DNA of 52,624 nt, filler included, from Squatina squatina (taxonomy: Eukaryota): NCBI GenBank assembly GCA_031763465.1. It is 3 parts of 3 records of this genome, joined end to end, with 100 filler letters (N's around TTAATTAATTAA, not from the genome) between each part and the next. Parts side by side here need not be neighbours in the genome. Positions count along the whole stretch, not along the records: positions 30,973 to 52,624 come from JARFOE010000162.1; 2 more parts are not named here. One strand, given 5' to 3'. How positions within the stretch are numbered: position 1 is the stretch's first letter; the number at the start of each line of letters is the position of its first letter. A program made the position numbers and the translations under genes. Below, piece by piece: positions 1 to 52,467 of this stretch. The notes under the pieces are model-generated. The model saw nothing but the letters and a program-made list of their open reading frames with translations, was not told the origin of the DNA and did no database searches.

Positions 1-45
1 AATTATCTGATGTGGGGCATTATAAATTAGATTCTAGGTACATAC

Positions 46-788
46 CAAAGATCGTCTCATCTGCATAAGAATGTTCATGAAACAGTCATAACTGATCATG
101 CCTTCTCGACTCATGGACAGTTTCGTTTTTTCCATGGTGCTAACTACAGCCGATGCAGCCAAAGCCATTTCGATCCATTCCAAAAGGTAACGTAGAGAAC
201 CACGTTGGGCTGCAAGTCCAAGCAGCAACTCTGAAGCCAGTCTTCGTCCCAAAATATCTGCTCCTGAGTTTGGCATTGTTACTCCTTTTAGGAATGTTGT
301 CACTTGAGACAAGCAGTCCAGTCCCATTGCTGGAATTTTACTTTCATTTGCTAAAGATAATGGTGGCAATGAGCTTATCACATCGATTGCTGTATGGATA
401 ACATCATTGCAGAGGTTCAATCCTGGTACTGTGGAAGGCACCATCCAGCTCTGTCGTAATAGTGCAAACAATAAGCTCAGTCCAGTCCGAACCCCCATCT
501 CGATTNNNNNNNNNNCGTTCACTGACAGAGTGGATGTCTGTTGATCCAGAACTGCTTTCAGGTGAATGTTGCTGCTGTTTGACTTTACCTTTGTCATGGT
601 ATTTGTTGGAAAGAGCATAAAAAACACGCTGCAACACCAGCAATCGCTTCCGAAGGGCTGCTGCAAATGGAGAATCTGAGCAAACCATCTTTGCCAGAGC
701 CAGCTGGCTACTAAGGAGAGCATCCAGATAGTGTTCTTGTTCATCGCTAGAGAGGGACTCACGTTCAAAGTCTGGTAACTGGGGTCCC
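46..788 (-). CDS. HERC1: HERC1 E3 ubiquitin ligase, large first coding exon (partial; 5' end lost in gap, internal 10-N gap at 506-515)
   Basis: Translates to GPQLPDFERESLSSDEQEHYLDALLSSQLALAKMVCSDSPFAAALRKRLLVLQRVF...[gap]...IEMGVRTGLSLLFALLRQSW...MQMRRSL, recognised as the HERC1 N-terminus; donor TTG|GTATG at 45; the frame change occurs across the N gap. Confidence 0.95.
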
Positions 789-888
789 NNNNNNNNNNNN
801 NNNNNNNNNNNNNNNNNNNNNNNNNNNNNNNNNNNNNNNNNNNNNNNNNNNNNNNNNNNNNNNNNNNNNNNNNNNNNNNNNNNNNNNN

Positions 889-992
889 TTAGCCATAAGA
901 ACTATATCTAACTCCTTCTTGAATATATTTAATGATTTAGCCTCAACTGCCTTCTGTGGTAGAGAGTTCCACAAGTTCACTACTCTCTGACT
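889..992 (-). mobile_element. CR1-like LINE ORF2 3' fragment
   Basis: SQRVVNLWNSLPQKAVEAKSLNIFKKELD motif typical of CR1 ORF2 C-termini. Confidence 0.85.
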
Positions 993-994
993 CA

Positions 995-3140: not shown

Positions 3141-4000
3141 ACTTTAAACTGAGATGCATGGCAGCGTGGTGATAATGGATAGGAGTTTTAAAACGTTTTT
3201 TGTAAAGTATTTTCAGATGCAATAATATAGTTTTTGTAAAGAGCAGTGACCTGTTAGAGGTTAAATAAAGCCACTAATGGGCCTAGAAATTGGGCTTCTC
3301 TTCACCATCCGTTTGTGCCGCTGTCCTGGGGAAAATGGCGGCCGCAACTAGAGNNNNNNNNNNNNNNNNNNNNNNNNNNNNNNNNNNNNNNNNNNNNNNN
3401 NNNNNNNNNNNNNNNNNNNNNNNNNNNNNNNNNNNNNNNNNNNNNNNNNNNNNCGTTCACTTTTCACCAGTGTACAACTCACATCTAAATCTTCCATATG
3501 ACATGACAAAAACAGATACATCTATAGAATTACAAGATTGTGTAACATTAATTAATTGGTAAATTCAGCGTTCCCAATGGGAACCACAATTAAAGGATGA
3601 ATAAGTTGGAGAAAAGGCTCCAACACCGATTCTCCAACTCAGTGTCTCGGAGTATAATCTCCTGGTTGGGAGTGCAGGACTGCTGAACTTACCCTTACAT
3701 AATTTCTGTTAGTAATTCAATTTTTTCTTTTAAGTGTGCTTCACTCAACTTGATAAAAATCAACACTGAAGTAATTATGTCACAAAAGTTGAATGTTCTG
3801 ATTTTTGTTTGTAAGTCAGTTTTATAAATAAAGTTAACAAATAGTTGTCAACTTTGGCCATCAATTTGAATTTAAATAAAGTCGGCTCTTTAGTGAAATA
3901 CAAATACATTTTCCCCAAACGGTTATCTTTCTGTGGGACAGACAGAGAAAAGCTGACTGCAACATCACATATGAAAGTGGTGTCATCAGACCTCCTCAAT

Positions 4001-4645
4001 CTAACTGTAATCACTTGACTCCGATACATTTAGGCTGGTGATAAGTTCTCCATTGCATGTGCCGTTTAACAGATCCTTCCAAGTTTCATTCAGATCTTTG
4101 TTGAAGACAGAAGCAAAGTCTCCATTCATATATACTTCACTGATGTGCTCAGCTTGAAAAGAGCGAATTACTTCCTGGACCCATTTCAATTCAGCAGAGA
4201 TCTCTTGATTCAGAGACTCAAACTGAGATTTTAGTTCAGCGTACTTTGCATCGACTGTGTTCAGCGTGCTATTCACGCCCTTTATCTCATCTTGCAGTTG
4301 CTTCTTCCTGGATTCGGCTTTACGATATTCATACCTGATCTGGGAAAGATCATGCCGGACACTTTCATTTTCCTCCTTGTACCAGGATTCCTTTTCATTA
4401 TAAATTGAAATCAATGCATCAATATCTTCCTGAAGGGAATCGTGCGCTGAAGTGAGCCCACTGAAGGTTGTCTCCATCACAGAGAGGTCCTCCACCACTT
4501 GGGCAAATCTTTCAAAGTTAACATAGGTGTTATTAGGTGGCATGCTGGAGTGAGATTTGATGGTGTATTCTTTCAGACGCTTGGTCTTCAGCTGCCTGCG
4601 TTCCTGTTTCTTGCTCTCCCTGGTTTTCTGTTCTTTTTGATGAGA
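4001..4645 (-). CDS. DAPK2: DAPK2 alternative terminal exon encoding a ZIPK/DAPK3-like coiled-coil tail (DRP-1beta type)
   Basis: Acceptor GAAG|TCT at 4646; 645 nt open frame SHQKEQK...ERRQLKTKRLKEYTIKSHSSMPPNNTYVNFERF...YNEKESWYKEE...SSDYS*; same strand as and downstream of the DAPK2 kinase exon; next to HERC1. Confidence 0.85.
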   Translation of the reverse strand, partial: SHQKEQKTRESKKQERRQLKTKRLKEYTIKSHSSMPPNNTYVNFERFAQVVEDLSVMETTFSGLTSAHDSLQEDIDALISIYNEKESWYKEENESVRHDLSQIRYEYRKAESRKKQLQDEIKGVNSTLNTVDAKYAELKSQFESLNQEISAELKWVQEVIRSFQAEHISEVYMNGDFASVFNKDLNETWKDLLNGTCNGELITSLNVSESSDYS

Positions 4646-5400
4646 CTTCAGTGGATCAGACAGAAGAGTTTCAGATTATTGAGGAGCACAATGCAAACGG
4701 GTGGGCTGCACACACGGCAGTAATGCGATACAAGTCCCATTCCAGCATTCCACAATCACTACAGTTAGTGCACTCCACACAAGCCTTTCCGGTTTAAAGG
4801 TTGTGCAATGGGACACACAAGATAACATTTCAAACAACACACACGACTTACTGTGCATGCAAACTGGTGGTGTTAGTTTGATTTTCAATGCAGACTTGGA
4901 TTGGAATTCTAGTTAGCTTCCAGATTACCAACAGCTTAAATTGACGGCATATTAAGACTGCAGTTCACTCAAAGCAGGGCTGAAATAAACTCAAACAGTT
5001 CACCCTAATGCTCCATGTGTTAGAATGCTATTTGTTTGCTGAAACTGGGATTTTGCCTCTGAAACAGATCCCCAACTCAAAGCCAAGTGTAAGAAGCTTC
5101 AGAAAGAATCAATATTTTATGTGACCCGTGGAATCTAAAGATGAAAATCACGCGATCGCTTCACTGCGTGCAGATTAACGCGCAGGCTGTCAAACAACAG
5201 TGGCACACACACTGCAGCAAGAAACGCAATTCATTTCTACACGGATGCGAAGACTTACCATTATCCCTGGGTGTGAAAGAGCAGCTCTGATGTTTAGCCT
5301 NNNNNNNNNNNNNNNNNNNNNNNNNNNNNNNNNNNNNNNNNNNNNNNNNNNNNNNNNNNNNNNNNNNNNNNNNNNNNNNNNNNNNNNNNNNNNNNNNNNN

Positions 5401-5449
<49 letters not shown>
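5401..5449. repeat. (GA)n microsatellite at contig edge
   Basis: Direct observation. Confidence 0.95.
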
Positions 5450-5452
<3 letters not shown>

Positions 5453-5676
5453 ATAGAACAAATGAGGAATATTGATCAATGCGAAGTGTTTTGAATATTG
5501 TGAAAATCTTTAAATTAGAGACGAATGCTGCTGCTCATCAACACTGATAAAAATAATTTAATTCCCGGTATTAGCAGAGTTCCGTTTCAGCAACTCATTG
5601 CTCAGGATTATTAATACTATCCTTCCTGTTCTGATCCTCTTTATCCCACCAACAGAAAAGGAAATCCTTTTACTCA

Positions 5677-5931
<255 letters not shown>

Positions 5932-5997
5932 TTAGAATCTGATCTGCTGATAATAGCTTTTGGTGTCAGAACAGCAACTAATATCTGCACGTATACA

Positions 5998-6230
5998 AGT
6001 GTCAGCTTGGCTCAGTGTCAGCGATCTGGAGTCAGAGGTTCGGAGTTCAAGTCCTACGCTGGGACTTGAGCACAACAATCTAGTCTAACTCTTCACTGCA
6101 GTTCTGAGTGAGTGCTGCATTGTTGGAAATGCCATTTTTCAGACGAGATGTTAAACCAAATGTAAAGAGCAGGAAATTCTCTTAATGTTCTGGCCAACAT
6201 TCTTCTCTAAGCCATCACCATAAAATAGAT
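5998..6230 (+). mobile_element. tRNA-derived SINE with Deu-domain-like core (SacSINE1/DeuSINE-like)
   Basis: A-box-like TGGCTCAGTG, B-box-like GAGTTCAAGTCC, then TGCAGTTCTGAGTGAGTGCTGCATTGTTGGA...GAGATGTTAAACC resembling the DeuSINE core. Confidence 0.65.
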
Positions 6231-6867
6231 TGAACATGGGGACTGCAAAACAGAAAAAGACCAAGGCCCACCTCGTTCTCCTACCGTCCTGGTAGTCACA
6301 TGATAATGGAGTTGTTGACCAATCACATCAATCAATCTCTATCAATGAGTCTATATCACACCCAGACACGAGGTGAGGAAAACCCCAGTGGTGGAGAGCG
6401 TGAGGCACCAGACGTCCAAACTCACCTGTTCCTCCTGAGCTCGCTGCACTCAACACATCCCATCTCAAATTACTCATACTGCATCCCAAAATGTTATTTG
6501 ACTTGGGTTTGCTTAACTATACGAGTTCAAGTTTTTTTCTTATACACACAGTTTACCATTGGTCCAATGCACCAAAGTGCCATTAAAAAAAAAAAATTGG
6601 AGTACATTTTCCATGTGGGATACNNNNNNNNNNNNNNNNNNNNNNNNNNNNNNNNNNNNNNNNNNNNNNNNNNNNNNNNNNNNNNNNNNNNNNNNNNNNN
6701 NNNNNNNNNNNNNNNNNNNNNNNAAGCTTTCTATGTAATGAAGCTATATTTTCAAGATTAGTTGGTGGGTTACTTTCCACGTGAGGGTGTGCACGAGTAA
6801 ATGTAATAGAGTAGGACTAGCTTACTGATAACTCAAGACTTCTATCCAAACACGAGTAAGTTCACAC

Positions 6868-7362
6868 CTGTTTAAGCCTTGGCAGTATCCTACATCGGGG
6901 TTCCTCCAGGAAAAAGCCAACAGAATGTTTCGAAGTTTTTGTATTCCTTCCGAGGTTGGCGAGGCATAGTGCTTATTGTTTGGCAAAGTGCGCATAAGAT
7001 CCAGCTCAATCTGTTTTGAAGCAGGGTTCTGTTTCTCTCGTGCTTTCTCCAGCAACGAGTTAAAATACCCAGAACTGCATTTATCCCTGTATTTTCTGAC
7101 ATGGAGGTGGACACACCACTTCCAGACTTTTGAGCGATGTTCATGTGGAACGCCCCAGCGAATGAGGCTCTTCAGCTCCGGTGAGCGCACCATTTCTCGG
7201 TTCATGGTGCCAGCAAAGTAATTCGCCCACTTGACTCCCATGGAAATTTCCTGGCCATCGGTGAGCGACAGAGATTTTAAATCTAGAGCCCGAACTTTGG
7301 CAACCAACTTCTCCTCTTCATCATCTTCAGGGACGGTCTTGAAGCCATATACATCATACTCA
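6868..7362 (-). CDS. TBC1D2B: TBC1D2B exon, start of Rab-GAP TBC domain
   Basis: 495-nt exon with CAG|/|GT boundaries; EYDVYGF...LIRWGVPHEHRSKVW...QIELDLMRTLPNN (IxxDxxR)...GYCQGLN (YxQ). Confidence 0.93.
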
Positions 7363-8219
7363 CTGGAATCAAAAAGACCAAATGTTTTACAGTGGAAAAA
7401 GTACTTCACTTTTTAAAACAGAGATTAAAAAATAACATTTATCAAAAGGAGATTGTGTACCAAAGGTACAACTAACATTCAAGCTCTTTAATGTCTCTCC
7501 CATTCATATTACTTCCCATTTTAAGCTCTCCCTACTTGCCATTTTTGCAGTAACTGAGGGTGGGGTTCATTGCTGTTGTTAATAAATGGAATTGCTGCTC
7601 TTTGTCTAAATTTATCGAGCCATCGAAATTAATTGTAGGTTTCTGGTCCCAATCTCAAGGATACAAGTCCTCATGTGATAATCAGGCACAGAAAGTATGG
7701 GTTTCACTTTTCCTGTTCGCTTTGCCCGTGGTGCCTATGGTTTAGAACTTGGTGCAAGTTTCATAGCTGGACGTCAGCTTGAGTTTAACTCAATATCCAA
7801 ACAAATGTCTATTTCTTTACAGCTCTAAAAAGATTCTTGCCAGATGCAGGTAACATACTTGNNNNNNNNNNNNNNNNNNNNNNNNNNNNNNNNNNNNNNN
7901 NNNNNNNNNNNNNNNNNNNNNNNNNNNNNNNNNNNNNNNNNNNNNNNNNNNNNNNNNNNNNTCAGAGATGGACCGGTCGGATGTAGACTCGACAGGACAG
8001 GAGGTCTGCTGGGAAATCTAACCTACATGTCAGTACTCCAAAGTGCCGCGCTATTTTGTCACCTATTATTATGCACTTCCTAAATACAAACTGCCTTTAA
8101 TCACTCTCTGGGATCTTTGATTTCCACCCGTACCAATTTGTATTTTGAAAGGTTCAATTGCCTTATCTGGAGAGATGGTGAGAATCGTAAAGAATACCTT
8201 TAGTCTTTCAGAACCTTAC

Positions 8220-8437
8220 CTTTTGACTGCCTAAATCTTCTTTCACCTTGTTCAGTTCCTCCTGCTGAGCTTGAATTCTGGACTGAATTTCTGTTGATGC
8301 CTTTCCATTAGTAACGATCCATTCCACAGGTGATGACTCAGTACTATTACGGCTCTTTGATGTTCCAATCATGTCTCTCAGGAACGGGCGTTTAGGTCTT
8401 TGTGACATTCTTGTAAAATCAAAAGGAAATGCTGATC
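8220..8437 (-). CDS. TBC1D2B: TBC1D2B upstream exon (linker and coiled coil)
   Basis: TAG|...|GTAAG; GSAFPFDF...KRPFLRDMIG...QAQQEELNKVKEDLGSQK resembles TBC1D2B QSQQEELEQLKKDLSSQK; correct exon order. Confidence 0.85.
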
Positions 8438-8641
8438 CTACAGAAAATACCAACAAATTTTTCCAGATATAAACAAGTCTATTTTATTGCTCACAAAACA
8501 ATTAAAACACAGATCAGATAGAGTTAAATGCTTTAAAATACNNNNNNNNNNNNNNNNNNNNNNNNNNNNNNNNNNNNNNNNNNNNNNNNNNNNNNNNNNN
8601 NNNNNNNNNNNNNNNNNNNNNNNNNNNNNNNNNNNNNNNNN

Positions 8642-8770
8642 CATAACCCTCTATTCCCTTCTCCCTCATTTGCTTGTCTAGCCTCCCCTTAAATCCATCT
8701 ATACTATTCGCTCCAACCACTCCCTGTGGTAGCGACTTCCACATTCTCACCACTCTCTGGGTGAAGAAGT
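8642..8770 (-). mobile_element. CR1-like LINE 3' fragment
   Basis: FFTQRVVRMWKSLPQGVVGANSIDGFKGRLDKQMREKGIEGY. Confidence 0.85.
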
Positions 8771-9445
8771 TATGAGCAGCACTGACCAAGAACACAACTT
8801 GAGCTGTTAGTTTGCTTTCAATTATTTATTAAGACAACAAGCAACGGAAAAGCCATATATTCAAAATATACCCAGAGATTTCCGACGAGGAGCGACACTG
8901 GAAAAGGAGATATCAGTGGACATCGCTTGCTCACATTCAATTGCAACAAACCAAACCAACAAAAAAAATCAAAGAGAGTATTCAACAGAAAAGCAATAAA
9001 CGGCAAATCGGGATCCTCCAAGTGAGAATGGGTCCAAGCAGAGTAATGATAGAGCCCTTCCACCGACTGTATTACAGTCACATGATTGTCATTGTGCTCC
9101 AGTACCTCACCGATACCGGAATAGAAAAATGGGAAAGCAGAAGGGAGATAAAAGGTCACATTCATGCACTTTTATGATCAAGATTGCATAGCTCTTAAAG
9201 AAATGGTCTTCAGTCTCTCCTTGGTACTGGCGCCGTTAGACACACTAGCCAGTCAAAATCCATCCACCACAGTGTAACCATTTCAAGCACAGGGAGTAGG
9301 ACACTGAGCCTGTCACAACAGCAAAATCCACGTGTTCCTGCTACANNNNNNNNNNNNNNNNNNNNNNNNNNNNNNNNNNNNNNNNNNNNNNNNNNNNNNN
9401 NNNNNNNNNNNNNNNNNNNNNNNNNNNNNNNNNNNNNNNNNNNNN

Positions 9446-9670
9446 ACTCTTTGGAATTCTTTACCCCAGAGAGCTGTGGAGGCTGAGTCATTGAATATAT
9501 TCAAGGCTCTGAGGGAGACAGATTTTTGATCAACAAGGGAATCAAAGGATATGGAGAACAGGCAGGAAAGTGGAGTTGAGGCGAGTATCCGATCAGCCAT
9601 GATCTCATTAAAAGACGGGGCAGGCTCGGGCCGAATGGCCTATTCCTGCTCCTATTTCTTATGTTCTTAT
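9446..9670 (+). mobile_element. CR1-like LINE 3' end with UTR and (TTCTTATG)n-like tail
   Basis: LWNSLPQRAVEAESLNIFK, then GGCCGAATGGCCTATTCCTGCTCCTATTTCTTATGTTCTTATG. Confidence 0.85.
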
Positions 9671-9732
9671 GTAATATCAGGTCTTTATCTCTGCTTCTGG
9701 TAACTGAACCATATTTATTTTTCTGTTTACAG

Positions 9733-9816
9733 GTGCTGACCAAAGATCTTGGCGGCAATTCTAAATGCTCTGAGTTCACCAATGAAATCTGCCGAAGAGT
9801 GAGGGATCAAGATTGA
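9733..9816 (+). CDS. IDH3A: IDH3A last coding exon
   Basis: Not in ORF track; acceptor TTTACAG|, [27 protein letters not shown] matches the IDH3A C-terminus; AATAAA at 10192-10197; expected position between TBC1D2B and DNAJA4. Confidence 0.93.
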
Positions 9817-11060
9817 GTCGCCATCCTGTTTGCTGTCTGGCCCGTATCCCATTGGTTATCCTGTGAAACTAGCGCTGCTGTATGTCAATCCATGACTCCC
9901 ATGTAAACCATTGCTGTAAATTGTCATTTAAATGTCCTGCTACTCTGCATCATATTACTACTTTTGGTTGAAACCTATCATGTGCTGTCTTTAGTGCCAT
10001 TCTGATTTGTTCTCTATTTATTGAGAGTTTTTTTTGTCCAGACCCACAGAGTATTTTTTTTTAATATAGAAAGGTATTAGAAAGATTGGGCATGAGATTT
10101 CATTGTTTACTTCCATTCCATTTGATTAAAACTGACTTCAAAATGGCTTCTTGCGTTCTAACTCCTTGACAGGCTGTTTAAAGTTCTTCAAAATAAAGAT
10201 ATAAAGCTGCTTCCATTCTGCTGTTGAAGATGGGCGTTTCATCTTTTGCACCAGTTTAGAAAACATCGCACTGGAAGCTGGCCCTGCCCACAACACTGGC
10301 CACACCCCCAGATCGCATTAATCGTCATGGCGAGTTTCCCCTAATTGCGCTCGTTTGCTGGCCTGTGGACATACTCTTGAAATATGTTTTTTTTGGGCGC
10401 AAGGACACCTTTTAAAAGTTTTTAATATTTTAAAATTTACTGAAAAAGTGATTACCGGACACCAATATAACTAGGAAATGGTTCTGTATAGTTTTTAAGT
10501 CATTTTCAGTTATTTAAAATTGGAATTCTCACAGGTAGCAGATGAGAGAGACTGATTAAAATGCATATTTTTTGTGATAAACCCATTCTCAGCTGTTTTA
10601 ATGAAACTGTACCAAGTAAATATATCAAGGAAGATTTTTGAATGCAATTTTTTAAAATTACATTCTAAAAAAAACGCTCGATTGCTCTGGGTCAGGGCAG
10701 ATTTTGCACAGCCATATGCAAATGAGTGAGCGGAAACGTGGGCAAAAAATTCACTTTCCAAAAGTAGCGTGATTCTGAGTGCCCGGCGTGCCGGTGGCAC
10801 CCAAAGCGGAANNNNNNNNNNNNNNNNNNNNNNNNNNNNNNNNNNNNNNNNNNNNNNNNNNNNNNNNNNNNNNNNNNNNNNNNNNNNNNNNNNNNNNNNN
10901 NNNNNNNNNNNGGTGGTTCTACAATCCCAAAATTCATCACCTTTGTGAAAATTGAGAATACTTACTGAACATTTCTGCCATTCTTCACTATCATTATTGA
11001 CCTATACAGAGCTTCTTTAAACTAAATTTCTGTACCAAAATGTTTGTCATTTTGTTTTAG

Positions 11061-11161
11061 GTGAAGTTATAAGAGTGGGCAGCCTTAAAAGTGTTGGTAA
11101 TGAAGGTATGCCTATTTACAGAGATCCATTTGAAAAAGGACAACTGATTATTCAGTTCTCG
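11061..11161 (+). CDS. DNAJA4: DNAJA4 (Hsp40 A-type) penultimate exon
   Basis: TTTTAG|...|GTAAGT; GEVIRVGSLKSVGNEGMPIYRDPFEKGQLIIQFS (NEGMPIY motif); paralog assigned by synteny. Confidence 0.85.
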
Positions 11162-11243
11162 GTAAGTGTTAACACAGAATGTTATGGGTACTTAAGATGC
11201 GGTTTGTGATTGCTGTGTAGTTATGCTCTTGCCTCGTTTGCAG

Positions 11244-11439
11244 GTGAAGTTTCCACCATATGGCTGGATTCCAGCACCCAGCTTGACTGAGTTGGAGGAT
11301 CTGCTTCCGCCACGTCAGGAGGTGATGATCACTGATGACATGGAACAGGTGGAGTTAACAGAATGTCTCCCGGAGGAGCAACGCAAAAGTTACTGTGGGG
11401 AAGCATACGAGGAAGATCAGAAACCTAGAGGAGGTGTTC
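11244..11439 (+). CDS. DNAJA4: DNAJA4 last exon (truncated by gap just before the CaaX)
   Basis: Follows an 82-nt intron; VKFPPYGW...LEDLLPPRQEVMITDDMEQVEL...EAYEED...RGGV. Confidence 0.85.
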
Positions 11440-11539
11440 NNNNNNNNNNNNNNNNNNNNNNNNNNNNNNNNNNNNNNNNNNNNNNNNNNNNNNNNNNNNN
11501 NNNNNNNNNNNNNNNNNNNNNNNNNNNNNNNNNNNNNNN

Positions 11540-11720
11540 GAGGTAGGAGGTGGTTTCGGGAGGAACACCAGAGCTCAGGGCCTCAGCAGCTGAAGGCACG
11601 GCCACCAACGGTGGAGCGATGTAAATCGGGAATGCGCAAAAGGCCAGAATTGGAGGAGCGCAGAGATCTCAGAGTTGTCAGGCTGGAGGAGGTTACAGAG
11701 ATAGGAAGGGGTGAGGCCAT
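11540..11720 (-). mobile_element. L2-like LINE 3' ORF fragment
   Basis: Reverse strand reads ...GGRAFSC*GP.LW...LP-like L2 C-terminal motif. Confidence 0.55.
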
Positions 11721-11988
11721 AAGAGTCCATCCAGTTCATATAACACTGGGCTTTTAATATTAACGGCCCCAGGTTATGCTACCCCATGACTAGATTTTGG
11801 GCTGTGAAGATAAACTCCCGAATGTAGGGGACGCACGGAGAAACTAGTCAAGCTGAACAGACGAGAATATCCTGAGTAGACCTAAAAGTAACACAAACAC
11901 ATCTTCACCAGAACCAGGCTTCAGTCCGCCCTCAGTGCAGGGCAACAACGTCCACTGTGAATAAAATTCCTCCTCTGGTTTGTCTTAC

Positions 11989-12137
11989 ATATGCAATACT
12001 GAGGATGAATTTTCCTCTTGTATCCAGGGAAGATTCTTTCTTTCCACTTTCAACGCCAAATATATTAACTTTCCCCAGGTGACTCACTGTTGCTAAAAAC
12101 TTGCCATCTGGAGAGAAGGCCACAGACCAGGCATCAA
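11989..12137 (-). CDS. WDR61: WDR61/SKIC8 internal exon
   Basis: TTTCAG|...|GTAAG; [49 protein letters not shown]. Confidence 0.95.
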
Positions 12138-31148: not shown

Positions 31149-31346
<198 letters not shown>

Positions 31347-36152: not shown

Positions 36153-36269
36153 GTGAGTGACATTGTTANNNNNNNNNNNNNNNNNNNNNNNNNNNNNNNN
36201 NNNNNNNNNNNNNNNNNNNNNNNNNNNNNNNNNNNNNNNNNNNNNNNNNNNNNNNNNNNNNNNNNNNNC

Positions 36270-36705
36270 CGCCACTTCAGCGTGCCAGATGAGGGGATGG
36301 TGACCCGCTCCAACCGTGGGCCACCATCATTCGGCCGACAACAGAGTCAGCCGACAAATTAAGATGCCGGCCGCAAGCGCACAGGCCCTCCCCTTTGAGA
36401 GGTTTCTCTGTCGCTGCAACCACCTGATGCTGCAGCCGTGTCCCGCAGGTGAATTCCAGCTGCGGGACGCAAATGGGCCACAAAGGGGGCTTGTAGCTGC
36501 GTAGTGCAGGTCAGTGTGCGTCTTTATGACGTCACAGGCCGACCCGTCGCAGAATTCAGCTGGCAAGGCGCAAAGGCCTTTGTGCCAGCTAAGCTCTCCG
36601 GGAGGCGAGATGGCCATCTCCCGGAGCCATTTTGTCCTGTTTCGCCCCATTAGCGCCCCTCAGAGGCACTAATGGGGCACAACGGGAGATGAATTTCTAG
36701 CCCTA
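36270..36705. mobile_element. GC-rich Harbinger-like DNA transposon end
   Basis: CGCCCCATTAGCGCCCCTCAGAGG (36643-36666) also occurs at 45665-45688; ends in AATTTCTAGCCC. Confidence 0.55.
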
Positions 36706-38540: not shown

Positions 38541-38974
38541 CAGCTAGAATTCCNNNNNNNNNNNNNNNNNNNNNNNNNNNNNNNNNNNNNNNNNNNNNNN
38601 NNNNNNNNNNNNNNNNNNNNNNNNNNNNNNNNNNNNNNNNNNNNNNNNNNNNNCAATATTGAAAAACTGACATAAGGTTGGGATTTCTAACTGCTTTTCT
38701 GCATACTAAGTCATAACATTATATTTTTACAATATGCTACTGGGCTGTAAAATTAAGAGTGCATGAAGGAATCCATGACATGTCTGCTTGACAGCTCAAC
38801 AGTTTGGTCTCTCATTGAAGGAGCCTATAGAATCATCATGTGATATTGTTCCCTGTCATTCAATTAATCTTTCCTGTAATTTCCTTACTTTGAGTTGTTT
38901 ACAGATTGCAGAAGCCTTTTTATGTTACTGTTCAGATCCTGGAATATCTGCACAAATATGACTTTCATGGAAGA

Positions 38975-39535
38975 AGACTAGTAGACTCATCACTAAGGTC
39001 AGGACATGTGGAATTAGGGGACAAGTGGCAGAATGGATAGCAAGCTGGCTACAAAAGAGAGAGTAGGGGTTAAAGGTAGTTACTCAGGCTGGAAAAGGTG
39101 GGAAGTGGTGTTCCAGAAGGATCAGTGCTGGGACCACAGTTGTTCACCACTTACACAAACGATTTGGACTCGGGAATTGGAAGTACAATTTCAAAATGTG
39201 TACCTTTTGGCAGGAAGAATAAGGAGACCACATACTATTTGGAAAATAAGTGTCTGAATGGGGTAGAGGAGCAAAGGGATCTGGGGATACAGATATGTAA
39301 ATCACTGAAAGTAGCAACGTAATGAGGACAAAAAGCAACCATATCATTGGGGTTCACTTCTTGAGGGATAGAATTGAAAAGCAGAGTAGTCAGCTACATA
39401 AACTTGTACAGAACCATGGTTGGGCCACACTTGGAGTACTGCGAACAGTTCTGGTGACCATATCACAAAAATGTATAGAGGTACTGTGGAAGGTGCAAAA
39501 AGGATTTACTAGAATGATACCAGAACTGAGTGGTT
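38975..39535 (+). mobile_element. CR1 RT fragment with internal deletions
   Basis: SGVPEGSVLGPQLFTTYTNDLD...EEQRDLGI...KVQKGFTRMIPEL. Confidence 0.85.
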
Positions 39536-39863
39536 ATCTTCCTCTTCATCCTCAAACTCCTCCTCTGTCTCTCCCTCTTCCTCCTCCTGAGGTGGTCCCT
39601 CGATCCCTGAAACTTCACACTTGCCCCTCTCACACAGCAATAGAGCAAAAACAATTCCGGTAGTCTAATAACAAAGCCCATGTTATTCAACATATTGTTA
39701 CGATTCAACATTTTGCACAGGTGACACTCCCAATGTCCCCAACAATATTGGAACCACAGTATTCCAAGTAGTATTTCCATCCTTCCGATAATCTACAATC
39801 CATTTCGTAATTAATTATTTGTTCAGAAACTTAGTCAATGCAGGATTAAATAAGACTACTTAC

Positions 39864-39954
39864 CTCCATCATATATTGGTCAACAATATGGAGGTCAGAC
39901 TGAGGGCCTTTGAACGTTTTGTACTTTTCAATATCATCCAACGTGGGAACATAT
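39864..39954 (-). CDS. Formin FH2-domain exon (putative PHCF-type formin)
   Basis: Not in ORF track; AATCAG|...|GTAAGT; YVPTLDDIEKYKTFKGPQSDLHIVDQYMME fits the FH2 PTxEE...L..xDQF pattern; phase-compatible with 43706-43817. Confidence 0.8.
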
Positions 39955-40609
39955 CTGATTTATAAAACAAGTACACAATTTACATTTCTGAAATGTAATT
40001 AATCAACCGGCACATAATAAACAAAAGCAAGCTTACAACAGATAGAAAACTAATTGAAAGTACGTTTTCGAAGAAACTCCAATACCTGCACATTAAGTTC
40101 ATTTCCATATATTGCAACCTTAAGTATACAGAAGATACTCAGTGAATTAAAAGGCAGTAATCCAATCATGGGTATTTGAGTAGGTCATTTCCATTGTCAT
40201 AATGCTATTGACCACTTGAGTTAGAAGCTGAAGGAATATCAGGTTTGTGCTGAAGAACGTACAGCATTACCTTCTGACGGACTACAGGAAATTTCACTAT
40301 CATGTATGTACTAGTCATGGAATCTGCTAATATTGTGAACAACACTGTAAACCTAAGGAAAGCAGACAGTTTAATTGCTAGAAATGAAATGAGGTCATTA
40401 TAAATCACTCAGTTTTCTTCCATCTCTGGTCTGGCTGGCTAGGGCAAATAATCATTGACAATCCAATTCCACACTGCACAATACATGGTCAATTAGTGTT
40501 CCACTGTTAGGGGATATACTCCGATGCATCTATCTATTTCATTCTGCAGAGTCTCCTTGGTATCCATCTGTCTCTTGTCCAACTCTTGGATAGAGGTGAT
40601 GCAAGTGTT

Positions 40610-40725
40610 GGACTCAGTACAGGTAAGGAAGGATAATACAGCCACAGTCGCAGAGGATCTCATTCGTGATTTTGGCTAGGGCCGTTTTGATGCTGTGAGT
40701 ACTTAGAAAGGAAAATTGGATCAAG
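40610..40725 (-). mobile_element. L2-like RT fragment
   Basis: HSIKTALAKITNEIL resembles HSTETALxKVxND. Confidence 0.6.
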
Positions 40726-42289
40726 AGCAATGTTCCCTGTGCAGCGCTCCAACGAACCTGCGCAGCCGACCTTTCAATGTAAAAACCGTGCATGAATGCT
40801 ATTATGAATAGCCCACGCAGCCCCTTAAAGTGGCCACACAGGGCCAAAAAAAAATGATATGGAACATTGGTCAAGGGCTGAGTTTTTGAAGAGTGAGTTA
40901 CTGATGGCAGGTTACATCATCCTGTACATATTGCCTATATCCCAGACGTTCATTTTACTTTTTATGTTGTTAAAGTCCTTGCATCTCCATACCAACTCTG
41001 GAGAGAGGGTGGCAAAGTTGAAGATGCAAAGTTTTTCTTTGCCTCTTGCCTTGGTCATAATCAGTTCCTTTGTCTTATAAAATTTCAGTATTTTCCATAT
41101 TGATTGGCAATGTCACTGAAGTCGTGTGTTTGTAGAGGCAGTTTTTTGGAGGGTGAATGGTGCCAGATTTTGCTTTCTTGTAAGTAAGAGAGTTGCTATC
41201 TGCAGTTGCTCCCAAGTTTCTCTGATCAGCTGCAGTGCTCAGGATTGGTGCTAACGGCCAAGTGGTTCTAATTTGAATTTCCTACTCGGAGGCACATGGG
41301 CAAAAGTCAGACTGGGGATTTCTTGGTCTGGGCCAGGCTACAGCTTTGCATTGCTGCTCTACATTCTGGAGATGCGGACCACGGTTGGGGGACAATGATT
41401 TTCAGTACCTGATTTTGAGCAGGATCCCTATACTTTCTGCAGTATTTTCAAGACTGCACAAGACTATTGCCTTTTTGAGGATGCTACTTGCTAGTGTATT
41501 TTTTCATATATGAAACAGTCAATAGCTGGCACGAGCTAGTTCTTTATGCTGCTGCACTGAACTGAAGTCATGAGAAGTTTATTTTCACTTTTAAGACAGT
41601 TTTCTTCCATATCATCTACCCCTTGATATGTGTAGTGGATACATTAGGTAGAGATGTGGGATATGATTTACATCTGATAAGCTGGCTGATCTGATTACTC
41701 ATAAGCAAAGTCCCAAGTGAGTTATGCTTTATGTTGGAGTGGGATATAAATCATATCCCATGGGCCCCCATAATATATTCAGTTTACATCATACATTAAA
41801 ATTAATTAGGTAAAGAGCCAAAAAAGACGGGTTTAATGGTACACTCTATTACTTTGTGGGCTGGTGCCATGCAGTTGGAAGCAGTGCAAGTGCTAATTAG
41901 TCTTTCATTGAGTGATACCAGTTCCGAATCATTATGCTTCGATCATTCTCTTCAAATAATATTGAAACGAAAAGCAGCAGCAAGAATTAGTATGTGATAT
42001 TATCCCTGTGAAATACGTAAATAGGAATATTTGTTTAAATAAATTTTACAAAAAAACATTCCTCCATTCACAAGGTTTAATGGAAAAGTAGATGTATAAG
42101 AGTGGCAACTGGTGTCCATGTTGACAGATACTGCTCCTCAATAAAGGTAGTTAAAAATGCTTGTTAAATAAAAAAAAATGCTAAACAGGCTTTATTAATA
42201 CTTTGGTCAAGAAGGAGTGCCTAATGTATAATTCCACAGCTACAAAGCCACATTGAAAGATAAATATTCCACAGAAGTTCGGACTTGGC

Positions 42290-42720
42290 ATGAGTGAGGC
42301 TTATGAGGGCAGCAATGAGCACTGGAGTTTTATGACCAGAAGCATAGGTTTAGCAGCCATTGTTGGGCATTTCACGGAGGAGAATGAGGAGAGGGAGGTC
42401 CAAAAGCATAGAAGCCATGGGAGGCATATGAGTCACAACAGGCATCATCCCAGACAACGGGTCTACTGCAATAGCCAGCTGCCTGGTGATAATGCAAAAT
42501 CCACGACTAAAGAGGCAGAGGCTCACCAGGAAAATTGTGATTGAGGTGTGGAATCTTCGGACACACAGGGAGAGTAAAATATCTAAATGTGTTACCAGTG
42601 GTGAACGAAGCCATCACTGCCATCAACTTACATGCCACATGGACCCACATAGGGGCATCAAATACTTCACCATACTCCCAGTTATATATCTCAGCAAAGA
42701 CCAGAAGCAGATCAGTCTCT
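42290..42720 (+). mobile_element. Decayed Harbinger/PIF transposase N-terminal region
   Basis: RHHPRQRVY...KRQRLTRKIVIEV resembles the HARBI-like RVYR...RLRLxRxxVxE pattern; heavily degraded. Confidence 0.4.
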
Positions 42721-43261
42721 GCAAGTAGGAAGACTAAGTGAGTGTCTCATTGCCCAGTTCTTACAGCAAGAGTTGGTATTGGCACAATTCTTTTCATTTG
42801 GACATATTTATAATCACAGAATTGCTACTTGCCATATTTTGTTCCATGCTGCATGTTTTATTTGACTTTTGGACAACTAACAGCATCTTTTCTACATAGC
42901 GGGAGTGAAATTGGTCAACGGCAACATCTCAGAACAGGCCGATTTGCTTTTCCAATGGACCTACATTACTGAGGTCTCCACTGCAGTTGTACTGATATTG
43001 CTACGTGCTCATGAGCCCTGTAGCACCATGTATCTGAATGCTGGACTTCTCCAAGTAATCCGATCATCTTCAAATGCCAAATGCAAGGAGACAAGTGACT
43101 CTTCAGTACAGTCTTCCTGCTGTAATAACCTGAATTTGAACAAAGTCTGTACTTCTATACAATTCAGTGGCACCAGGCAACATGCTGTGGTTCCCCCTGC
43201 ACGCTGAGTTTGGCCCTGCATCAATCATTGCCACTGCTCTCCCTCCCTCACCATTATTTAA

Positions 43262-43370
43262 AAAAAGAAAGACTTGCATTTATATAGCACCTTTCAGGAC
43301 CACCAGACATCCCAAAGAACTTTACAGCCAATGAAGTACTTTTTGAAGTGTAGTCACTATTGTAATGATT
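43262..43370 (-). mobile_element. SacSINE1/L2-type 3' tail
   Basis: Reverse complement ...AAGTACTTCATTGGCTGTAAAG...GGTGCTATATAAATGCAAGTCTTTC. Confidence 0.7.
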
Positions 43371-43705
43371 GCTTAATGATCCTGAAACCATNNNNNNNNN
43401 NNNNNNNNNNNNNNNNNNNNNNNNNNNNNNNNNNNNNNNNNNNNNNNNNNNNNNNNNNNNNNNNNNNNNNNNNNNNNNNNNNNNNNNNNNNTGAGTTTTA
43501 AAAGATAATAGATTGTTGATGGATGACTGAGTGGGATAAGTAGTAACAATGGTTTGAGGATCTGGTAAATTAAGGTAATTAGTCTTGTTTTCAAACCAGT
43601 ATGTGGACAATTCAGCACTCACAATGGCAGCCGTATAGCTCCCTCTCTCTTGCATCATTCCTGAATGGTGCAAATGACAAAGTATCCCTTTCGCTGAAAC
43701 CTTAC

Positions 43706-43817
43706 CTCCGTAAAGAAGCAATCTGCTCATTTGTTAATCCACCATTTTCTTCTCGTATTATGAGCAATTTCCCCCTCAGTTGGGTCACTTTGACAGGGAA
43801 GCTTCTCAGAAAAATGC
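43706..43817 (-). CDS. Formin FH2-domain exon (putative PHCF-type formin)
   Basis: Not in ORF track; TTTTTTGAG|...|GTAAGG; (G)IFLRSFPVKVTQLRGKLLIIREENGGLTNEQIASLR; ends in phase 2 and joins 39954 as ...SLRR-YVPT... Confidence 0.75.
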
Positions 43818-44631
43818 CTCAAAAAATGGAAGAAAAAATTATGTAAAATCATTCACTGTCCATAAATTATGAGCCCATGTTAATTAGGAGAAACTCGATA
43901 AAATCTGTTTACCATTTATTTTCCAGTCTAATAGCTTTCACATTCTATCTTTTCCACTCATTTTATTATCATAACTTTAATTTTATTTTTTACTCTAATC
44001 GATCTATTCAAACGCTTTTTACTCCCAAGAAAATTCAAAACATTTTAATTACCTGTGTTCTTCTTTCTTCTGAAGCATTGTCAACATTCATGATTTACAG
44101 ATTTTTTTAATTGTTTGCAATTCAAGCAGATTTTAAAATATGTCGAAAGTTCCACTTAAATTTCCCACTTGAATTGTGAGCATTAGCAAAATTTCCATGA
44201 ATCACCAACTCACAAGTGAATTATGAGTGTGACATTGCTGCTCCAGGCTCTTACTGTGCAATTTAAAGGGACAACAGATGTCAAAAATGGGCTATGATGG
44301 GCTGGAAAAATAAGTTGATGAGTTATTTTTTCCAGCCAATTAAAAGACAAAGTGNNNNNNNNNNNNNNNNNNNNNNNNNNNNNNNNNNNNNNNNNNNNNN
44401 NNNNNNNNNNNNNNNNNNNNNNNNNNNNNNNNNNNNNNNNNNNNNNNNNNNNNNTTCTACTATTAAGTCATTTTAATGAATCCGTTATAAAATTAAAGCA
44501 CCTTTATGTCATGCAACGCAATCTGCTGAATAAATTGATGACCATACTTTAACTAAACAAAGATTTAGGCAGTCAGCTCCAAATCCAATATCTTTTTAAT
44601 GGCGAATAAAAGAGAATTGCTATTATCATAC

Positions 44632-44757
44632 CTTATCTGGTCTGCTTGGCTCCTGATTTGTTGGTTTGCCACTTTGTGCAACTTCCCAGGCCTGATCAAT
44701 GGTGAGCTCTCGGTTTTTCACTGCATTGAGTAACCTGATCTGTTCATCGTTGCTAAG
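44632..44757 (-). CDS. Upstream exon, probably of the same formin gene
   Basis: Not in ORF track; CATAG|...|GTATG; 126 nt, phase 0-0; LSNDEQIRLLNAVKNRELTIDQAWEVAQSGKPTNQEPSRPDK. Confidence 0.55.
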
Positions 44758-45149
44758 CTATGATGCAGAACAAGAACATTGAACATGTTAATAGAGCAAC
44801 CAATCATAAAAGGTGGAAGAGATAATTAGAACAAACTGCTAAAATTACAGCACAAGTCATTGCTCGCTTACAAAAACATGGTTACTTTTTCAACTAATCA
44901 ATATTTTGTGGATTATTAGAGATATTAATATCCTTAAATACAATGAGATAAGATTACACTGTTAATTCTCCCAAGCAACAAACAGACAATGAATTTTTCA
45001 GTCATTTGAACGTGGCAGCTCAAGATGATAAGGCTGTTAAAAAATTATTTGGGGTCCTTGGCTTTATAATTAGAGGCATAGAGTGCAAAAGCAAGAAAGT
45101 TATGCTAAACTTTATAAATTACTGATTAGTCCTCAGCTGGATTATTGTC

Positions 45150-45735
45150 CATAAATTTCCCTACCTGTGTGGGTCCGGTGCGAGCGATCGCTAGGGCAGA
45201 TCGCGAGTCCGTTGCTGGTTCTATTCTACTTTATGGTGCGGGACTGGTGATGTCATCGATGGTGCGTTTTCAGCCGGGATATTTAAAGGAGCAATGGCCA
45301 CAGTGCATTTGAAGGTTCATCTAGGATAGTGCAGTCACTGCACTGCACAATTCCATTGTTGCCCAGACCAGCAAATATGCTTGTGGGGGGAGTCAGAGCA
45401 CACAGGGAGGTCCTCTTCCCTGTTGAAGGCCGAAAGAGACCTCCCCAGCAGACCAAGTCAGCATGGCTCCAAATTACAGAGGAGGTCAACAGTAGGGGTG
45501 TGTTGGTGCAGTGCCACAAAAAATTTCAATNNNNNNNNNNNNNNNNNNNNNNNNNNNNNNNNNNNNNNNNNNNNNNNNNNNNNNNNNNNNNNNNNNNNNN
45601 NNNNNNNNNNNNNNNNNNNNNNNNNNNNNNAATGGCTGCCTCCGGACGCCTTTTCTTTAAATAACGCCCCATTAGCGCCCCTCAGAGGTGATAATGGGGC
45701 ATTAAAAAAGGCCAATTTTGGCACTAATATCTCTA
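45150..45735 (+). mobile_element. Harbinger element with Myb/SANT-like (MSANTD/NAIF1-type) ORF remnant
   Basis: LVGGVRAHREVLFPVEGRKRPPQQTKSAWLQITEEVNSRGVLVQCHKKF, with W and QCxKKF spacing typical of Harbinger DNA-binding proteins. Confidence 0.7.
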
Positions 45736-47197
45736 GGCCAACACATATTGTCAGAGTGGCCATGATTATGTTAGTTATCTTGTGTCCCTTGGATATTTCA
45801 CATATACCAATCAGTACGTCAAGCCCCACATTATCCTATCAATTTGAGAATGTTTAAAGTAACTTGGTGAAAGCTTGGGATGGTGCAGTAGCTTAATCCT
45901 AAGCACAAATGCACGAGTACCAAAGCTGATAACAGGAATACCTACTATTGCTGTGGGTAGTGATTATTTAATGATAAACAGTCACAATGCAGCATTTTAA
46001 AAATCACAATATTAATTATCATAACAACTAATCCCTGGAGACCTAATTATACGTGAACTAATTGGATTAATGCCAGTTTTTAAAAATTCCATCATAGACC
46101 CTTCCTTATTGCAGCGCTGATATTGCGATGAAATGTCTCTCTGAATTGATTACCTTTTACACTGACTATTATCAGGCTTATTTTAGATTAATTCACTTAC
46201 CAGCATGAGTAAATTACATTAATGTAAAGCTTTGTTTTGCTTGTCCCTGAAGATTGATTTCAGGGTCATTTGTATCTGTATATTAATTAGTTTTATGCAC
46301 ACATAGTTCAAGTCATTGTTTAAAATCACAAGGCATTATAGTATGNNNNNNNNNNNNNNNNNNNNNNNNNNNNNNNNNNNNNNNNNNNNNNNNNNNNNNN
46401 NNNNNNNNNNNNNNNNNNNNNNNNNNNNNNNNNNNNNNNNNNNNNCGCGCAATGATGACATCACAGCGGCACAATAACACTAAAGCCAGTGCCTCGAGCA
46501 TTATGGGCCTTATGCCCCTTTTGCGCCGGCGCAAACGGGAGCTGAATTTTGCGCCCGTGTTTTCGCACCCAAAGTGCCTTTACGCCAGTTTTGCGCTAGA
46601 AGATTTACCTCGAATTGTCCGCCCACAAAGTTTTGATTAGAGGTTGGGTGTATTTATCATGCTGTGATTTGCTGATTGAATTGGTAGATTGTTTTGCAGA
46701 TAGCCACTCACAAGTAACAGCACAAGGGGGCGCCAAACAACTATTGTCCTGGCATTTGAAGAGTTTGAAGACAGTACCTTATTGCAATAGTTAAGTTGCT
46801 GCCTGGAGCAGCAATTCACTGTCAATCAGCCATAGCCCTGCACTTTAAGTGGTCATTTTAAGTCTCTAAAGGACAGGGAGGAGCAGCTGCCTGCTAGTGG
46901 ACTATAAATGCATTGAACCATCAGCCATGACAACTCAGAGAATGAATCGAGACTCTGCCCATGTAAATAGAATGAAAGAAAGGAAATTGGGAACTCTCAG
47001 TCTTGGTGTTCCTTAAAACTAGCAATAGAAGGAATTGCTGTGTGTTGAATGGAGATCAGTAACTACTGACCAAAGTCGGCAGGATGAAGGATGAAGCTTT
47101 TTCACAATGAATTAATGGAACTTTCCAGTGCTGCCACAGTGGAAAAGTCACTCCTTTTAAGCTTTGCTTCCAGCACCACAAGTCAGCCGCTGTCACG

Positions 47198-48125
47198 ATG
47201 AATTCCACCCATTCTATATTCTTCCTGCCGATAATGAACAGCACGGAGGATCTGAAGGAAATCAGTGTTCTGAACAACAGGAGCAGCGCAGGCTTCTGTG
47301 AGCAGGTCCCAATTAAAGCTGAAGTGTTTTTGATTCTGGGAATCATCAGCCTCCTGGAAAACATCCTGGTCATCCTAGCAATCCTTAAGAACAAAAACCT
47401 CCATTCACCCATGTATTTTTTCCTCTGTAGTTTAGCAGTGGCAGATATGCTGGTAAGTGTATCTAATGCTTTGGAGACAATTGTGATGGCATTGTTGAAC
47501 AGCGGTTACTTAGTTGCTAGGGACCAGTTCATTCAGCAAATGGACAATTTTTTTGACTCAATGATCTGTATTTCTCTAGTGGCATCTATATGCAGTCTGC
47601 TGGTTATTGCCATTGACAGGTACATCACCATCTTCTACGCTTTGCGCTACCACAGCATCATAACAGTAAAACGGGCCTTGATTTTGATCATACTTATCTG
47701 GATTGCTTGCATTTTCTGTGGCATTATCTTCATCATGTATTCAGACAGTAAAACCGCCATCATTTGCCTTATCACCATGTTCTTCACCATGCTTTTCCTC
47801 ATGACCACCCTTTATGTCCACATGTTCATGCTTGCTCGTCGACACATTAAAAGAATCGCCACGCTCCCAGTCAATGGGATGGTTCGTCAGAGGACTTGCA
47901 TGAAAGGGGCCATTACCATCACCATCCTCCTGGGGATCTTTANNNNNNNNNNGTCCCAAAAATCCATACTGCATTTGTTACACATCACATTTCAACACAT
48001 ACCTGATCCTCATTATGTGCAATTCGGTCATTGACCCCATCATTTATGCTTTTCGGAGCCAGGAGATGCGCAAGACGTTCAAAGAGATAATTTGCTGCTA
48101 TTGTCTGAATCTCAACTTGCGTTAG
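47198..48125 (+). CDS. MC3R: Melanocortin-3 receptor (intronless GPCR; 10-N gap hides part of TM6)
   Basis: [39 protein letters not shown]; after the gap [57 protein letters not shown]; flanked by CBLN4 and FAM210B/AURKA. Confidence 0.95.
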
Positions 48126-51239: not shown

Positions 51240-51356
51240 CCACTATTTGAATGCTACATGCCTTGGAAAATCCCACTGAATTCAATAAGCTATAGCTCGT
51301 TGTTTCTTTTATATTCTGTTCCAATGATAACATTCACCCTTACCATATCTCCTCAG

Positions 51357-51535
51357 AGTGCGAGCGGAGATGGAACAACTGGGAAAGAAGGCAGAAGATC
51401 TGATAACAGCAATGATAAACTCAGCAAGTCCCAGCAGCTAAAGCAAGTCTTCAAAGAATACGGAGCTGTGGGAGTGGTATTTCACACTGGAATATCACTG
51501 ACCTCACTTGGAATGTTTTATCTGGCTGTTTCAAG
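51357..51535 (+). CDS. FAM210B: FAM210B exon 2 (DUF1279 start)
   Basis: CTCAG|...|GTGAGT; KLSKSQQLKQVFKEYGAVGVVFHTGISLTSLGMFYLAVS; lies between MC3R and AURKA. Confidence 0.92.
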
Positions 51536-52057
51536 GTGAGTCTTGCGAAGGATCCATTTTTAAATGGGACGAGTGCTGCNNNNNNNNNNNNNNNNNNNNN
51601 NNNNNNNNNNNNNNNNNNNNNNNNNNNNNNNNNNNNNNNNNNNNNNNNNNNNNNNNNNNNNNNNNNNNNNNNNNNNNNNTAAGTAAAGAGCATCACCAAT
51701 TACCCACTGAGCCAGCAGTGGAGTGAATGTTGCCACACAGACTCAGAAGTGTCTCGATCTGCAACACTCGAGGTGTATGTCTGAAATGAAATCAAAGCAT
51801 CATGGATTAACTGTGCATTGACTAGATTCAGATCCCACAAACAATTTAAACCAATTCAAAGATTTTTTTTTTTTTAAAAAGATGCTAGTTCCACCCTTTA
51901 AATCACTGACCATTGCATATATGCTAAACTGGATAATGAATATAGGCCATTAAACACCTTCAGACCATTTTGCTCCAGCTTAAAAGATACATAATTTCTA
52001 TTGTAGTTGAGCGGCAGCATAGAATAGAAGGTTTACAAGTTTGTCCAGGTCACTTAC

Positions 52058-52232
52058 TTTAGAAATTCTCCTGAAGGTTTCTTGACGATCTGCTGCTTCA
52101 AATGGAGGATGGCCGACTAAAAATTCATAACAAAGAACACCAAGACTCCAAAGGTCAACCTTCTCATCATGCATTTTCCCCTCAATCATCTCTGGCGGCA
52201 GATAGTCCAGGGTACCACACAATGTCGCTCTC
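52058..52232 (-). CDS. AURKA: Aurora kinase A exon (activation loop to subdomain X)
   Basis: 175-nt exon TTTTAG|...|GTAAGT; [46 protein letters not shown]; paralog assigned by synteny. Confidence 0.92.
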
Positions 52233-52467
52233 CTAAAACAAAAAGTGCCTTTTAGTATACATTACATCATGCACATTAATTCAGTGTTTCTAGCCAGTTA
52301 GCATTGTATGCTACACCGTGAAACCAAAGCCTGAAAATGATTGGGGATGGGGGAAGGGAAAAGAGCTTGTCCTAATATTTAGGAATTTAAACTAACAGCA
52401 ATCTGCTGAACTTGGGTGTAAATGGGGGACTGATACATAAATATAAAAATATACACACACGGTAGAG

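Follow-up and report, generated by a model that had tools for sequence, protein, structure and literature searches.

Animal formins fall into nine subtypes, one of which comprises the pleckstrin-homology-containing formins (PHCF). The phylogeny published by Pruyne in 2016 defines this subtype by clustering of the formin homology 2 (FH2) domain together with the presence of pleckstrin homology (PH) domains. By the same account, the PHCF gene of coelacanth, birds and marsupials is flanked by MC3R and CBLN4; the human MC3R-CBLN4 interval holds six defunct PHCF blocks (PMC5047451). Known PHCF genes are zebrafish LOC101883438, chicken LOC419333 and opossum LOC103097295 (PMC5047451; PMC5628938), and the chicken gene occurs in RNA sequencing tables of breast muscle and intestine (a single row in each; PMC10258505, PMC7458390). 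Cartilaginous fishes are absent from the species list given in the text of the 2016 study (PMC5047451). A second formin that resembles PHCF is delphilin (GRID2IP), which also has N-terminal targeting domains and is without the Rho-binding autoinhibitory module. Unlike PHCF, delphilin has PDZ and harmonin-N domains in place of PH domains and belongs to a separate FH2 clade. A delphilin paper suggests that the two may share a mode of regulation (PMC6004577).

The DNA analysed here (the window) is a stretch of 52,624 nucleotides, filler included, from the shark Squatina squatina (assembly GCA_031763465.1). Three minus-strand exons in the window are those of a shark PHCF orthologue, an additional member of the known subtype:

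44632..44757, minus strand: N-terminal PHCF coding exon (126 nt, phase 0/0; 42 residues)
43706..43817, minus strand: PHCF FH2 exon (112 nt, phase 1 to 2; the knob Ile is the first whole codon)
39864..39954, minus strand: following PHCF FH2 exon (91 nt, phase 2 to 0), adjoining 43706..43817 in all homologues

Identification of the PHCF exons

The original prediction of three minus-strand exons with GT-AG boundaries at this position is borne out by similarity searches. When full-length shark homologues are compared to the window by tblastn, each exon scores 56-86 bits (100 shuffled queries: at most 27.3 bits), and a PHCF profile run over 2622 six-frame segments scores these three exons at 43-60 bits and everything else at 1.4 bits or less. 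Exons 43706-43817 and 39864-39954 have AG/GT ends and splice in phase, as had been proposed, to give one open frame of 67 whole codons of the FH2 domain. The spliced peptide first proposed for them was in the correct frame, but its leading Gly was read with a G that belongs to the AG acceptor of the intron. A missing exon completes the codon that is split at this position; because the homologues have Asn (34/35) or Ser (1/35) here, the residue is likely to be Ser.

Single exons had no match in Pfam. The assignment to FH2, which had also been predicted, follows from the homologues, whose PF02181 matches include the spliced piece, and from its score of 32.7 bits on a profile built from 25 non-PHCF formins only (best of 1000 shuffles: 6.4). 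On a profile of 13 non-vertebrate members of the PHCF clade, the same piece scores 72.2 bits (shuffles: at most 7.7). The knob Ile, which the prediction had singled out as an actin-binding residue, is invariant in the 35 orthologues (35/35). Its counterpart in mDia1 is residue 845, and the offset between aligned ranges places it at residue 1431 of Bni1. This is presumably the classical actin-contact Ile.

The N-terminal exon corresponds to residues 53-94 of the Heptranchias orthologue P0158 and encodes a SHOCT-like helical hairpin and the linker directly before the first PH domain. Used as a query, its 42 residues retrieved 11 proteins among 53 candidates, all of them from sharks or rays, and 10 of the 11 have an FH2 domain (E-values of 8e-41 or lower). 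In tblastn comparisons of these proteins with all three exons, order and strand are consistent; the partial protein P0010 matches the N-terminal exon only. The three exons were thus correctly predicted to encode parts of the same protein, although the N-terminal exon is not adjacent to the FH2 exons: in homologous proteins it lies approximately 412-418 residues upstream of them, and in the window the three are on separate contigs.

The N-terminal exon is 81-95% identical to the 11 chondrichthyan proteins and 50-95% identical to the chondrichthyan gene models, and all three exons are 89-95% identical to their closest shark orthologues. The FH2 piece is most similar to Pristiophorus P0003 (92% identity), with 74-92% identity to chondrichthyan proteins, 51-70% to those of other jawed vertebrates, and 21-41% in partial matches to formins with Drf, PDZ or PTEN domains. 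Heptranchias XP_067856710.1, Heterodontus XP_067904242.1 and Callorhinchus XP_007910263.1 are direct orthologues of the window gene. A Heterodontus protein query gave 182 matches, of which 120 were listed, with chondrichthyans at the top followed by bony fishes, coelacanth, lungfish, turtles and birds. A turtle protein query (357 matches, 120 listed) adds crocodilians, lizards, amphibians and one marsupial. No placental name is found among the 120 matches listed for either query, which is not a test of absence. The gene model of wombat P0393 skips ahead precisely at the end of exon 39864-39954, suggesting an intron position common to shark and marsupial.

At least 15 named chondrichthyan species have full-length FH2 orthologues among the matches listed, so that the description of this gene as hidden was too strong: shark PHCF is already in the databases, under wrong names. 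Chondrichthyan gene models are labelled uncharacterized, formin-F/H, DIAPH2/3 or DAAM2, never PHCF, and PHCF orthologues overall are named uncharacterized, formin-F/H/I, DIAPH1-3, DAAM1/2 or delphilin-like. An amphioxus member, P0178, carries the name 'Cerebellin-4'.

The assignment to PHCF in particular, also part of the prediction, is supported by sequence, tree and predicted structure. The FH2 piece is identical to the zebrafish PHCF row at 44 of 67 positions, gap-free and counted by eye, in the alignment of S1 Text (PMC5047451). The quail protein P0332 and wombat P0393 closely track the chicken and opossum rows there, again judged by eye. An FH2 tree was made by a quick IQ-TREE run on 61 rows selected from the listed matches (150 listed in one source search), with support given by the Shimodaira-Hasegawa-like approximate likelihood ratio test (SH-aLRT). 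In this tree the window piece groups successively with elasmobranchs (8 rows, SH-aLRT 99), chondrichthyans (9 rows, 99), jawed vertebrates (20 rows, 99) and jawed vertebrates plus lamprey (21 rows, 99). These belong to a 36-row clade, split from 25 other formins at 100, in which formins with PH domains from amphioxus, acorn worm, jellyfish and a choanoflagellate are also found. The tree proposed as a check yields a PHCF-type clade, with only DAAM and delphilin named among the other animal subtypes. In its FH2 sequence and, as far as the scaffolded order goes, in its position between a cerebellin gene and a melanocortin receptor gene, the window gene is like the PHCF of Pruyne.

Domain organization and the N-terminal hairpin

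The domain anatomy of shark PHCF is read from an AlphaFold model of the Heterodontus protein P0009 (810 residues; mean predicted local distance difference test score 68.6). The model contains helical hairpins at residues 8-36 and 54-80 (helices 54-65 and 71-80), two beta-sandwich-plus-helix domains, a disordered linker (residues 330-437) and an FH2 domain. The first of the two sandwich domains (residues approximately 94-194) has a PH fold like that of ARAP3 (Z 13.5, root mean square deviation 2.4, 92 residues aligned, for residues 96-190) and the second (approximately 206-332) a PH fold like that of AKT (Z 13.1, root mean square deviation 2.2, 105 residues aligned, for residues 206-331). By VIA-align, the model matches FH2 structures with Z of 19-23 over about 300 residues. 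A Foldseek search ranks FH2 structures first; proteins with tandem PH domains, among them centaurin alpha-1 and FARP2, come next. In the ESM Atlas, residues 48-335 match PH families at 0.80-0.83, under the 0.9 mark. Several invertebrate and choanoflagellate members have Pfam PH domains above threshold. The basic loop of the first PH domain is kept among the vertebrate proteins compared; basic loops of such PH domains bind phosphoinositides.

In the predicted layout of the orthologues, one or two N-terminal hairpins are followed by a pair of PH folds, then by a disordered linker whose proline-rich FH1 region is short, and finally by FH2 and a short tail. The longest proline run before FH2 is 2-5 residues in 11 chondrichthyan proteins, and the tail after FH2 is 14-19 residues long in 10 orthologues. 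GBD (Drf_GBD), FH3 (Drf_FH3) and PDZ had no match in any of the 11 orthologues scanned with Pfam, and no DAD-like tail was found in PHCFs. The shark orthologues resemble chordate PHCF, with the predicted order PH-PH-FH1-FH2, without a C-terminal PH domain and with no G, DID, DD or DAD regions seen. Two other classifications were considered and rejected. For a Diaphanous-related formin (DIAPH/DAAM/FMNL), the orthologues have a hairpin and PH folds and not GBD-DID-DD, and their clade is separate from the Drf rows; for GRID2IP/delphilin, neither the PDZ and harmonin-N domains nor a place in the delphilin FH2 clade was found.

A hairpin profile was built from 35 vertebrate rows, in which the hairpin is present by construction. 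The profile matches 9 of 10 further jawed-vertebrate proteins and 13 of 31 more distant relatives, including those of lamprey, amphioxus, acorn worm, jellyfish and a choanoflagellate; the 18 misses are perhaps partial or diverged. It matches none of 40 non-PHCF formins and none of 411 shuffled proteins. Among PHCFs the hairpin thus ranges from choanoflagellate to marsupial. In lungfish and most sharks, a further and diverged copy precedes it, whereas the rays, chimaera, teleosts and tetrapods checked have mostly one. In the sawfish protein P0001, residues 13-85 carry a near-exact duplicate of the hairpin, in contrast to the diverged first copy of other sharks and lungfish.

The hairpin resembles the SHOCT-like family PF22746 without belonging to it: matches are weak and limited to two distant relatives (P0240, 26.6 bits; P0181, 20.8 bits; cut-off 27), and the window exon has none. 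The hairpin exon matches nothing among PDB sequences up to an E-value of 10, and its best ESM Atlas match (0.88) is to bacterial or hypothetical clusters, a lead only. A complex prediction with two hairpin peptides scored 0.04 with the alignment unused, which speaks neither for nor against binding. A possible likeness to the C-terminal region of BCAP/BANK1 was considered. No mention of the hairpin was found, under the terms searched, in the main texts of the 2016 and 2017 Pruyne papers (PMC5047451, PMC5628938); a search for literature linking SHOCT to formins gave only unrelated matches among those listed. Among the formins compared, the hairpin is specific to the PHCF subtype, and it is apparently undescribed. 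It is possible, though doubtful, that these approximately 30 residues are a regulatory module of PHCF, an oligomerisation or partner-binding switch in place of DID/DD that would make PHCF a lipid-gated formin with its own control, lost in placentals.

Proposed role and alternative explanations

The proposed model for the function of shark PHCF is as follows. The PH pair, of which the first has the conserved basic loop, would bind phosphoinositide-rich membrane. At the membrane, the FH2 dimer would nucleate actin filaments and ride their barbed ends. The short proline runs would give weak profilin-driven elongation, rather as in delphilin. As GBD, DID and DAD are absent, activity may be controlled by placement, and possibly by the N-terminal hairpin, rather than by Rho-released autoinhibition. 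In sum, the exons are probably fragments of a shark PHCF orthologue whose gene is likely intact in this animal and which is predicted to be a membrane-targeted actin nucleator. The gene is likely to be intact because the visible exons are open, have high identity to their orthologues and are on a short branch.

Several observations weigh against this model. Only 109 of approximately 810-817 PHCF residues (13%, about an eighth) can be read in the window. With the other 87% of the coding sequence missing from it, the earlier description of this copy as apparently intact is not supported. Exons for the PH domains, FH1 and the lasso are all among the missing ones. All statements on domain layout are therefore borrowed from orthologues. 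The P0009 model has a predicted template modelling score of 0.41 and was built on 35 sequences, and Pfam scores the shark PH domains below threshold only (best E-values: 0.0034 for PH_29 and 0.0096 for PH). The tree has no bootstrap values, only 18% of its columns are filled in the row of the window piece, and the subtypes named beside PHCF are limited to DAAM and delphilin, with no named DIAPH, FMN, FHOD, FMNL, INF or MWHF rows. The acceptor of exon 43706-43817 is GAG instead of the usual YAG; GAG splice acceptors are rare. Literature searches turned up no biochemical or cellular work on a PHCF; among the records searched, those that name PHCF are two phylogenies and two versions of one delphilin paper.

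An alternative that is rather unlikely is that the gene is intact but its FH2 domain is mainly a barbed-end capper, a bundler or a microtubule binder, or is closed by the hairpin, rather than being a membrane-gated nucleator. The very short proline runs fit such a protein, as does the position of mDia1 residue 994, a conserved Lys and the second actin contact, which is Arg in 34 of the 35 orthologues (in an exon outside the window). The effects of mutations at these positions vary among formins: delphilin requires the Ile but is less dependent on the Lys, and it nucleates but barely elongates (PMC6004577). The conserved, PHCF-specific hairpin is a putative closing element. However, neither the knob Ile nor the two lasso Trp vary (the latter in 35/35 orthologues, again in exons outside the window), and the predicted fold matches active formins over the approximately 300 residues aligned. 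A DAD-like tail was looked for in PHCFs and not found.

It is also improbable that this PHCF orthologue has lost its function in S. squatina, or is losing it, as happened in placental mammals. The portion of the gene that is out of view and the unusual acceptor would suit a decaying gene, and PHCF has already been lost once, in placentals, by the account of the 2016 text (PMC5047451). The window is a heavily gapped scaffold with 43 runs of N, mostly of 100 N, and the longest contigs are 4.7 kilobases. The three exons are on three different contigs with 100-N gaps between them, and both neighbouring genes are on yet other contigs:

44455..45530: contig with hairpin exon 44632-44757
44355..44454: 100-N placeholder gap; 714 real bases separate the hairpin exon from the first FH2 exon
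43492..44354: contig with FH2 exon 43706-43817
43392..43491: 100-N gap within the intron separating the two FH2 exons
38654..43391: contig with FH2 exon 39864-39954

Because the exons flanking the gap at 44355-44454 are only 714 real bases apart, this gap must conceal approximately 412-418 codons, including both PH domains, FH1 and the start of FH2. A single 100-N gap must therefore hide more than 1.2 kilobases of coding sequence, and the gaps are placeholders rather than true lengths. No further PHCF exons were found in the window, either by tblastn with 11 homologues or with two profiles in all six frames. The missing exons coincide with placeholder gaps, and the neighbouring genes are just as fragmentary. 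In addition, the visible exons are open, in phase and close to those of other sharks, the terminal branch of the window piece (0.029) is the shortest among the sharks in the tree, and full-length gene models of the PHCF orthologue exist in other sharks and rays. These points argue against decay.

An origin of the exons in a different formin subtype (DIAPH, DAAM, delphilin), or in misplaced contigs of different genes, is very improbable indeed. In its favour, best-match names include 'protein diaphanous homolog 2/3', 'DAAM2' and 'delphilin-like', and there are three contigs. Against it, one set of proteins is matched by all three exons, with order and strand as expected; the 11 of those proteins that were scanned had no GBD, FH3 or PDZ domain; identity to DAAM1 and mDia1 is only 21-28%; proteins named as DAAM or delphilin are placed in the other FH2 clade; and the Pruyne-row match, identity gradient and tree refute a different subtype in practice.

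Neighbouring genes and significance

The PHCF exons are flanked by the following features:

31149..31346, minus strand: last coding exon of a cerebellin gene (C1q; PF00386, E-value: 7.5e-10), taken to be CBLN4
47111..48122, plus strand: melanocortin-type G-protein-coupled receptor (PF00001, E-value: 1e-28), head to head with PHCF, with a 10-N gap at 47943-47952 inside; presumably MC3R
51240..51536, plus strand: FAM210 exon, past the melanocortin receptor (PF06916, E-value: 2.9e-09)
52001..52261, minus strand: protein-kinase exon (PF00069, E-value: 1.4e-15), presumably AURKA

The order of cerebellin, PHCF, melanocortin receptor, FAM210 and kinase in the window matches the published locus, the gene names being tentative and supported by Pfam class. 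A position between CBLN4 and MC3R was predicted for this gene and agrees with that order, but neither neighbour shares a contig with any PHCF exon. Contig order is the product of scaffolding across gaps, probably on a related genome, and the synteny is for this reason weaker than it appears and not independent for this species. What the prediction said of the 2016 phylogeny, namely PHCF between MC3R and CBLN4 with remnants in human, is correct (PMC5047451).

The window has several other features. An exon of an iron-containing alcohol dehydrogenase (25123-25353, plus strand; PF00465) lies approximately 6 kilobases ahead of the cerebellin exon; it presumably resembles ADHFE1 and may be either a retained paralogue in the block or a scaffolding neighbour. 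Positions 37-13904 hold single exons of the Pfam classes kinase, TBC, DnaJ, WD40 and lipocalin, which are taken to resemble HERC1, DAPK2, TBC1D2B, DNAJA4, WDR61 and CRABP1. These would presumably correspond to a human 15q block, here sharing a scaffold with the block of human 20q13; the left half of the window has single exons of genes that are presumably on other human chromosomes. Broken pieces of a hAT transposase, with a BED finger and the hAT dimerisation region, are found at 941-3138 (plus strand). A Myb/SANT-like frame at 45287-45529 (plus strand; PF13873, just below cut-off), located between the PHCF hairpin exon and the melanocortin receptor, is likely a transposon-derived repeat; similar GC-rich stretches are found near 36269-36700 and 46446-46640. 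An open frame of 224 codons at 4004-4675 (minus strand) has coiled-coil character and matched no specific Pfam family.

PHCF is well conserved across cartilaginous fishes, a group outside the search of the 2016 study. A shark PHCF was to be expected, as the sharks are bracketed phylogenetically by groups with known members (lamprey, fish, birds and marsupials), and the weight of the finding is modest, raised a little by the subtype-specific hairpin and the scarcity of functional work on PHCF. As the databases file PHCF under the names of other formins, the locus and its relatives are useful for annotation. The conserved N-terminal hairpin could matter more, as it would provide a concrete handle on the control of a formin without Rho-type autoinhibition.

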